DNA of 486 bases, taken from NCBI RefSeq assembly GCF_003334255.1, contig NZ_QOWU01000232.1; one strand, given 5' to 3'. The stretch is from Escherichia coli. GTDB lineage: Bacteria > Pseudomonadota > Gammaproteobacteria > Enterobacterales > Enterobacteriaceae. The notes below the pieces were generated by a model. That model saw only the letters and a program-made list of their open reading frames with translations, did no database searches and was not told the DNA's origin. Both the position numbers and the translations under genes were made by a program. Shown in pieces: positions 1 through 486 of this stretch (positions are counted from its first letter, which is position 1; each line of letters opens with the position of its first letter).

Positions 1-486
1 GAAGCTGCGCAGCGTTTCCCGGTGCAGGCGGTCGCGGGTGTACTCCACCAGCGGTGTGTCGCCGAGTTTCATGCCTGACAGCCAGCCGCTGCCGTAGGTC
101 AGCCATTCCACGGCGGGCAGGCTGTCCGGTATACAGCGGTTCGCCAGTCCCTGTGCGTTGTACGCATGTCTGGTCTCATGCTGCCAGAGCAGTTCATTCG
201 TCTGCGGATGATGCACCGTCAGGTGTTCACTGGCGAGGCGGCCTTTACTGTCATAACCATAGTGCACCGTCACCCGGTGCCCTTCGCTGATATGGCTGAT
301 GTCTGTCAGCCAGCCGCGTTCGTCATACTGCCACCGCTCTGCGGTTTCGCCATTCACGGTGCGGTGCGTGAGGCGGTCTGCTTCGTCATAGTGCCAGTGG
401 GTGACCAGCCCCTCATCCTCGCTGCGGATAAGTTTGCCGGTCAGGTCGTGGTGATAACGCTGTGTGCGGCCGTCAAAGCCGGTTTC
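1..486 (-). CDS. Rhs-family YD-repeat protein, internal core fragment (partial at both 5' and 3' ends; 162 codons, frame set by position 486)
   Basis: Minus-strand frame beginning at position 486 is open across the entire window, with no stop codon and no start required. The translation contains recurring YD-repeat motifs: RYHHDLTGKLI, HWHYDEADRLT, WQYDERGWLT, HYGYDSKGRLA, YNAQGLA, YGSGWLSG, YTRDRL. These match the Rhs/YD consensus (G-x3-R-Y-x-Y-D-x2-G-R-L) at roughly 21-24 residue spacing. I recognise this from memory as resembling the enterobacterial (E. coli-type) Rhs core; no database search was run, and the specific paralogue cannot be assigned from 162 residues. Confidence 0.9.
25..471 (-). 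repeat. Array of about seven tandem degenerate YD (Rhs) repeat units, defined at protein level within the Rhs core CDS
   Basis: Repeat units in plus-strand coordinates (encoded on minus strand): 427-471 GRTQRYHHDLTGKLI; 367-411 GLVTHWHYDEADRLT; 304-351 GETAERWQYDERGWLT; 232-282 GHRVTVHYGYDSKGRLA; 142-186 WQHETRHAYNAQGLA (degenerate); 64-111 VEWLTYGSGWLSGMKL (degenerate); 25-63 GDTPLVEYTRDRL. Spacing between the Y-D anchor positions is 22, 21, 24 and 31 residues for the first five units. Confidence 0.8.

Follow-up and report, generated by a model that had tools for sequence, protein, structure and literature searches.

An exact 11-nucleotide direct repeat in the Escherichia coli rhsC gene is very probably a by-product of coding

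The window analysed here, a stretch of 486 nucleotides of Escherichia coli DNA, lies within rhsC and carries the 11-mer CAGCCAGCCGC in exactly two copies on its plus strand, at positions 79-89 and 307-317. We consider it very probable that this pair is a by-product of coding, a coincidence that arose under coding constraint in rhsC and that has no function of its own. On this reading, two different beta-hairpins of the Rhs cocoon would each carry Gly-Trp-Leu at the exit of the turn, and both spell the tripeptide in the commonest rhsC codons, namely GGC, TGG (the sole Trp codon), and CTG. The codon preceding the tripeptide happens to end in GC at both places, being CGC (Arg) at the copy that we term site A (307-317) and AGC (Ser) at the copy that we term site B (79-89). 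The Trp of site B would have taken the place of Tyr (His in distant relatives) as a derived state confined to particular alleles, and the nucleotide identity would have arisen recently and convergently in rhsC-type alleles, not by inheritance from a repeat duplication.

Megablast matched the whole window to K-12 rhsC of E. coli at 100% identity. The window corresponds to residues 667-828 of RhsC on the minus strand (positions 1-486), and all 486 nt of that strand form a single open frame. In the annotated locus (L001), the window occupies positions 6001-6486, while rhsC extends from 4291 to 8484 on the minus strand. When the whole RhsC protein was compared to the NCBIfam profile RHS_core (NF041261), it scored 2683.5 bits, against a curated cut-off of 2000, with profile positions 675-836 aligning to the window. 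The window thus represents a known member of the RhsA/B/C subfamily (NF041261) of the K-12 Rhs proteins of E. coli, namely rhsC, with no difference at the level of the gene. The status of rhsC as a K-12 Rhs polymorphic-toxin gene, the YD repeat, and the Rhs cocoon fold are all already well described. The first features are as follows.

Positions 1-486, minus strand: fragment of the rhsC coding sequence, from the YD-repeat beta-cocoon core (100% identity, open frame, NF041261).
Positions 307-317, minus strand: site A 11-mer, cGC GGC TGG CTG, encoding R723 (last 2 nt), G724, W725 and L726, inside QYDERGWLTD.
Positions 79-89, minus strand: site B 11-mer, aGC GGC TGG CTG, encoding S799 (last 2 nt), G800, W801 and L802, inside LTYGSGWLSG.

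Downstream of rhsC, the region L001:2414-3934 and 106-1622 comprises an orphan "RHS repeat-associated core domain" pseudogene fragment devoid of an N-terminus, the small open reading frames ybfB and ybfC, and ISAs1-family transposase pseudogenes, and the layout is the usual displaced-tip arrangement of Rhs loci.

The two copies are 228 nt, hence 76 codons, apart. There is no third copy in the window, even with one mismatch allowed, and in the 12,486-nt locus the 11-mer is present, on either strand, only at these two places. Its reverse complement, GCGGCTGGCTG, is read in the same codon phase in both copies (frame 2 of one open reading frame), and the tripeptide GWL occurs only twice in the 1397 residues of RhsC, at the two 11-mer sites. 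The original prediction had reported the 11-mer at these positions and this distance, and had its reverse complement encode the GWL of YGSGWLSG and of YDERGWLT on the minus strand; the matches found are exact, and both lie in frame in rhsC.

How far such a pair exceeds chance depends on the question asked. This particular 11-mer is expected 0.04 times; the question that we took as fair, however, is the occurrence of any exact direct repeat of at least 11 nt in 486 nt, not that of one specific word. Such a repeat appeared in 5.8% of the cases when dinucleotides were shuffled, in 8.6% when codons were resampled according to rhsC codon usage under an unchanged protein, and in 19% when synonymous codons were permuted within the window. 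With the protein given, the probability that sites A and B match is 0.13 over the 9-mer GGN-TGG-CTN and just 0.03 over the full 11-mer, the latter value counting against pure coincidence. As for codon usage, GGC (63/134), CTG (80/129), CGC (53/125), and AGC (40/86) each rank first among the rhsC codons for the residue concerned, while TGG is the sole codon for Trp. The 11-mer repeat is real, and goes beyond chance just marginally.

Among the alternatives, the one that survives best, albeit as an improbable one, is that put forward in the original prediction, namely that the 11-mer is a nucleotide footprint of the YD-repeat architecture, its two copies being homologous and falling at equivalent GWL positions of two YD units. 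The two sites have to be compared with the YD unit, and with each other, to judge it. The Tse5 paper (PMC10684867) gives the consensus of the Rhs cocoon hairpins as YDXXGRLV, in which the DXXGR motif is the turn, the Gly is highly conserved, and the Tyr and Leu point into the cocoon cavity.

Positions 301-336, minus strand: canonical YD unit RWQYDERGWLTD, residues 717-728, which comprises site A (YD profile, PSSM, weak Pfam match, AlphaFold2 turn).
Positions 73-108, minus strand: non-canonical hairpin EWLTYGSGWLSG, residues 793-804, which comprises site B (3-residue turn in two models; Y797, G798 and G800 at least 90% conserved).
Positions 4-123, minus strand: conserved block, residues 788-827, LPxhxWLTYGSGHLHGhxLG..FERDxLHRExxR, which holds site B (homolog conservation).

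Site A reads as a canonical YD unit. A YD-unit HMM, self-trained on RhsC with both test units (A and B) masked, found 26 units in the protein, site A among them, with residues 717-728 on profile positions 1-12 and the GWL of site A on the G-r-L positions 8-10. In an ungapped PSSM scan of all registers, site A scored +11.7 bits (98.8th percentile), and Pfam RHS_repeat gave a weak match from Y720 (E=0.0073). In the AlphaFold2 model described below, the predicted hairpin is AERWQY / DERGW / LTDISH, with the 5-residue turn of a YD unit. Compared to the YD repeat YDxxGRL[I/T] (Pfam PF05593 RHS_repeat, NCBIfam TIGR01643 YD_repeat_2x), site A agrees in its Tyr at the end of strand 1, its D-x-x-G turn, and its Leu and Thr at the start of strand 2, and differs in having Trp instead of Arg; in YDERGWLT, the Gly closes the DxxG turn, and the Trp stands at the consensus Arg position. 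The GWL of site A is near-invariant among enterobacterial Rhs (fragments, clusters). In distant homologs (34-45% identity, exhaustive search) its Trp column is R, Q, L, W, S or N, a variability that is expected because the Trp sits at the Arg position of YDxxGRL, and the solved T6SS Rhs cocoons (8CP6, 8QJA, and 7Q97) display Arg, Gln or other residues at this place.

Site B, on the other hand, is not recognisable as a YD unit at the sequence level. For residues 793-804, the YD HMM yielded no domain at domE<=10, and Pfam RHS_repeat gave no match between RhsC 755 and 858 even at E<=10, so that both profiles speak against the footprint reading at this site. The NCBIfam scan likewise returned no repeat match over site B. 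The best ungapped PSSM register does place G800 on the profile Gly, as that reading would have it, but its score of -11.4 bits (87th percentile) is at background level, and it was tied with an unrelated register; on account of the background score and the tie, we rejected this register as proof of equivalence. Alignments holding both units, whether made with MAFFT or otherwise, were kept out of the evidence, since the identical GWL aligns with itself and the argument would be circular. Compared to the YD repeat consensus, site B (YGSGWLS) is devoid of the Asp, has one residue fewer from Tyr to Gly, and is missed by the profiles. Of the two YD units that the original prediction had assumed, that of site A is borne out by the profile, PSSM and Pfam evidence, while that of site B is not.

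Site B lies within a conserved motif, WLTYGSG(H/Y/W)L, in which the Trp of RhsC is an uncommon residue. In enterobacterial Rhs, GYLAG was found in 59 of 81 clusters, GWL being a minority state; across 44 homologs, column 801 holds H in 24, Y in 16, and W in 3, and among homologs of less than 50% identity (n = 26), His is present at 801 in 92%. The three solved cocoons likewise have His where RhsC has Trp801, the motif being WLTYGPGHLHG in Tse5 (8CP6; YGxGHL hairpin stretch VAWLTYGPGHLHG), WLRYGAGHVHG in the Advenella VgrG-Rhs (8QJA), and LYYGSGHLHQ in P. protegens RhsA (7Q97). Among the 40-residue windows of the core, that of residues 788-827 ranks third in conservation (26 homologs of less than 50% identity), and the positions conserved to at least 90% in a 33-sequence alignment are Y797, G798, G800, R817, D818, L820, H821, R822, E823, and R826. 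The original prediction had called the G-W-L conserved; this applies to its Gly and Leu, while outside narrow clades the Trp is conserved at neither site (R, Q, L, S or N at site A; Tyr or His at site B), which again disfavours a footprint of the architecture.

This block merits an observation in its own right. LPxhxWLTYGSGHLHGhxLG..FERDxLHRExxRxFG (residues 788-827) is one of the best conserved stretches in T6SS-type Rhs cores, and yet it is missed by the repeat profiles. In the model, its GSG turn is predicted to be unusual in having 3 residues, and a 5-residue turn that is free of glycine, DRLHR, comes next. The Rhs structure papers that we consulted neither name nor describe the WLTYGSGHL motif. 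At W801 (window 82-84), the Trp of the rhsC type replaces a near-invariant His, the residue being Tyr in most enterobacterial Rhs, including K-12 rhsA/B/D/E; about half of those E. coli records that carry this rhs family have rhsC-type alleles with Trp801.

The location and frame of the copies, the states in paralogs and alleles, the scores against profiles, and the null models were obtained directly; turn geometry was taken from predicted structures. The AlphaFold2 model covers RhsC 300-1250, and its loops were read from DSSP strings, with no coordinates inspected. Its pLDDT is 87.1 (about 88-92 around sites A and B) and its pTM 0.81; together with a second model, that of a 39%-identical homolog, the pLDDT range is 87-88. 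Foldseek gave TM values of 0.78-0.80 between the RhsC model and the solved Rhs cocoons 8CP6, 8QJA, and 7Q97, and RhsC is predicted to adopt a beta-cocoon fold built of hairpins. According to DSSP, the core of the RhsC model contains 41 five-residue loops, and every unit with a YDxxG motif among these has the form Y / DxxGx / L. At site B, the model gives VEWLTY / GSG / WLSGMK, one of just two 3-residue loops in the core, and the model of the homolog gives LKWLTY / GSG / HLLGLSY, with the same 3-residue turn. The 5-residue D-x-x-G-x turn is thus absent from site B in the two predicted structures.

The position of site B in the series of turns does favour the footprint reading. In the RhsC model, the turns that follow Y720, Y744, Y776, Y797, R817, and Y837 alternate with turns at the opposite end (EG, HPQTNE, PDSLPA, GD, and GR), and site B would occupy a YD-turn slot in this alternating series, three units downstream of site A. 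At unit level, the two sites would then be analogous, both triplets straddling the turn end of a hairpin. Residue for residue, however, the models would have the two GWL offset by one. At site A, the Gly and Trp are the fourth and fifth residues of the loop, and the Leu begins the strand; at site B, the Gly closes the loop, and the Trp and Leu are the first two residues of the strand. Counted from the Tyr that ends the strand, the Gly is at +4 at site A (Y-D-E-R-G) and at +3 at site B (Y-G-S-G); GWL is nearer to this Tyr by one residue at site B because the GSG turn has three residues and DxxGR has five. The unequal Tyr-to-Gly spacing and the predicted turns of 3 versus 5 residues both argue against equivalence. 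The equivalence of positions expected in the original prediction would therefore hold in the models for the turn slot, and fail for the residues, with site B moreover undetected by the profiles.

Comparison with the paralogs and with other alleles bears on the nucleotide identity itself. The states at the two sites, and the differences that matter, are the following.

rhsA and rhsB (K-12): site A CGT GGC TGG CTG; site B AGC GGT TAC CTG GCA.
rhsD (K-12): site A CAC GGC TGG CTG; site B AGC GGT TAC CTG GCG.
rhsE (K-12 pseudogene): site A not present; site B AGC GGC TAT CTT GCG.
Positions 78-85, minus strand: differences from rhsA/B at site B, at window positions 85, 83, 82 and 78, GGT TAC CTG GCA in rhsA/B being GGC TGG CTG TCA in rhsC.
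Position 316, minus strand: synonymous CGC (rhsC, many alleles) versus CGT (K-12 rhsA/B) at R723; only with CGC do all 11 nt match.

No copy of the 11-mer is harbored by the K-12 paralogs rhsA/B/D/E, despite the same units at the same residues, and the pair is confined to rhsC-type alleles. In rhsA and rhsB, the two sites agree at only 7 of 11 nt. The rhsC window differs from rhsA/B at 31 positions, and the cluster of four differences at site B is isolated inside 147 otherwise identical nt; the changes at window 85, 83, and 82 create the 11-mer match at this site. E. coli displays three site-B haplotypes: (i) GYLA, (ii) GWLA (GGC TGG CTG GCA), seen in strains R2, PD4, and Sakai, and (iii) GWLS, seen in K-12 rhsC and strain 7CC. 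Whether site A has CGC does not depend on the state of site B, strain SCU-301 being an example. The exact 86-mer of the rhsC type around site B was present in 1865 of 3741 matching records. The pair is therefore a derived property of those alleles that combine the Trp of site B with the CGC of site A.

Being limited to rhsC-type alleles and absent from the paralogs, the pair is therefore not a relic of repeat duplication, and it cannot go back to the ancient duplication from which the repeats arose. The proposal of a nucleotide footprint of the repeat architecture does not withstand this comparison, as rhsA/B share the units, match at 7 of 11 nt, and show that the pair was made by recent substitutions. 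The by-product reading is not free of tension either: the change at site A and all but one of the four rhsC-specific changes at site B raise the similarity between the two sites, somewhat more than simple coincidence predicts. In itself the 11-mer pair is of little importance. It does call for caution, in that exact repetition of nucleotides within a repeat protein need not reflect the history of its repeats; here is a case of recent, allele-specific convergence in which the second copy lies outside any canonical repeat unit.

The same set of changes would be accounted for by a templated mutation, in which GGT TAC at site B became GGC TGG by copying from site A, 228 nt upstream in the gene, either through ectopic conversion of a short patch or through template switching during replication, with imperfect direct repeats as the partners. 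We regard this as less likely still than a footprint of the architecture. In its favour, the ancestral site B (GCGGTTACCTG) already had the flanks GCGG and CTG in common with site A (GCGGCTGGCTG), three substitutions within 4 nt yield an exact copy, and the intermediate GGT TGG was found in none of 5426 E. coli genomes. But the common flanks, 4 and 3 nt long, are very short by the standards of all known conversion processes, and the other intermediate, GGC TAC, does exist (2 of the 5426 genomes, at 4 places), as does GGC TAT in rhsE; a plain tandem AC to GG change on a GGC background therefore suffices. The neighbouring G to T change (GCA to TCA) is, in addition, a mismatch with site A, which has ACA, the alleles are visibly mosaic through ordinary recombination, and the pattern was spotted after the fact. 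The search for intermediates, with one rare intermediate found, amounts to neither proof nor exclusion of a templated event. If it were true, the 11-mer pair would illustrate, in nature, how a repeat can template a multi-nucleotide mutation in a toxin gene rich in repeats.

That the 11-mer is a DNA-level functional site used twice, be it a protein-binding, recombination or antisense-RNA element, is close to excluded, since, although the exact pair is slightly rarer than chance (the 5.8% of dinucleotide shuffles), it is missing from rhsA/B/D/E, its bases vary within E. coli, searches of the window against Rfam (both strands) and with Tandem Repeats Finder gave no match and no tandem repeat, neither coding-independent conservation nor association with an element boundary was seen, and the codons of one frame, inside one coding sequence, fully account for both copies. 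On the same grounds (one coding frame, nothing from Rfam or the tandem-repeat search, paralogs devoid of the pair), we agree with the original prediction that coding explains the repeat and that no regulatory or mobile-element role need be invoked.

Two further observations were made in the window. Of the 31 differences between rhsC and rhsA/B, 21 fall within about 77 nt, at window 194-270 (RhsC residues 739-765), a hypervariable patch in which 9 amino acids are replaced along a single long hairpin with its loop; other E. coli alleles combine the two versions in mosaic form, which suggests recombination or diversifying selection. Window 319-333 and 382-396 carry a second direct repeat, TTCGTCATA[C/G]TGCCA, which is in frame, matches at 14 of 15 nt over a distance of 63 nt (21 codons), and encodes the W-x-Y-D-E of adjacent canonical YD units (residues 697-701 and 718-722); unlike the 11-mer, this repeat does occupy equivalent positions of two canonical units.
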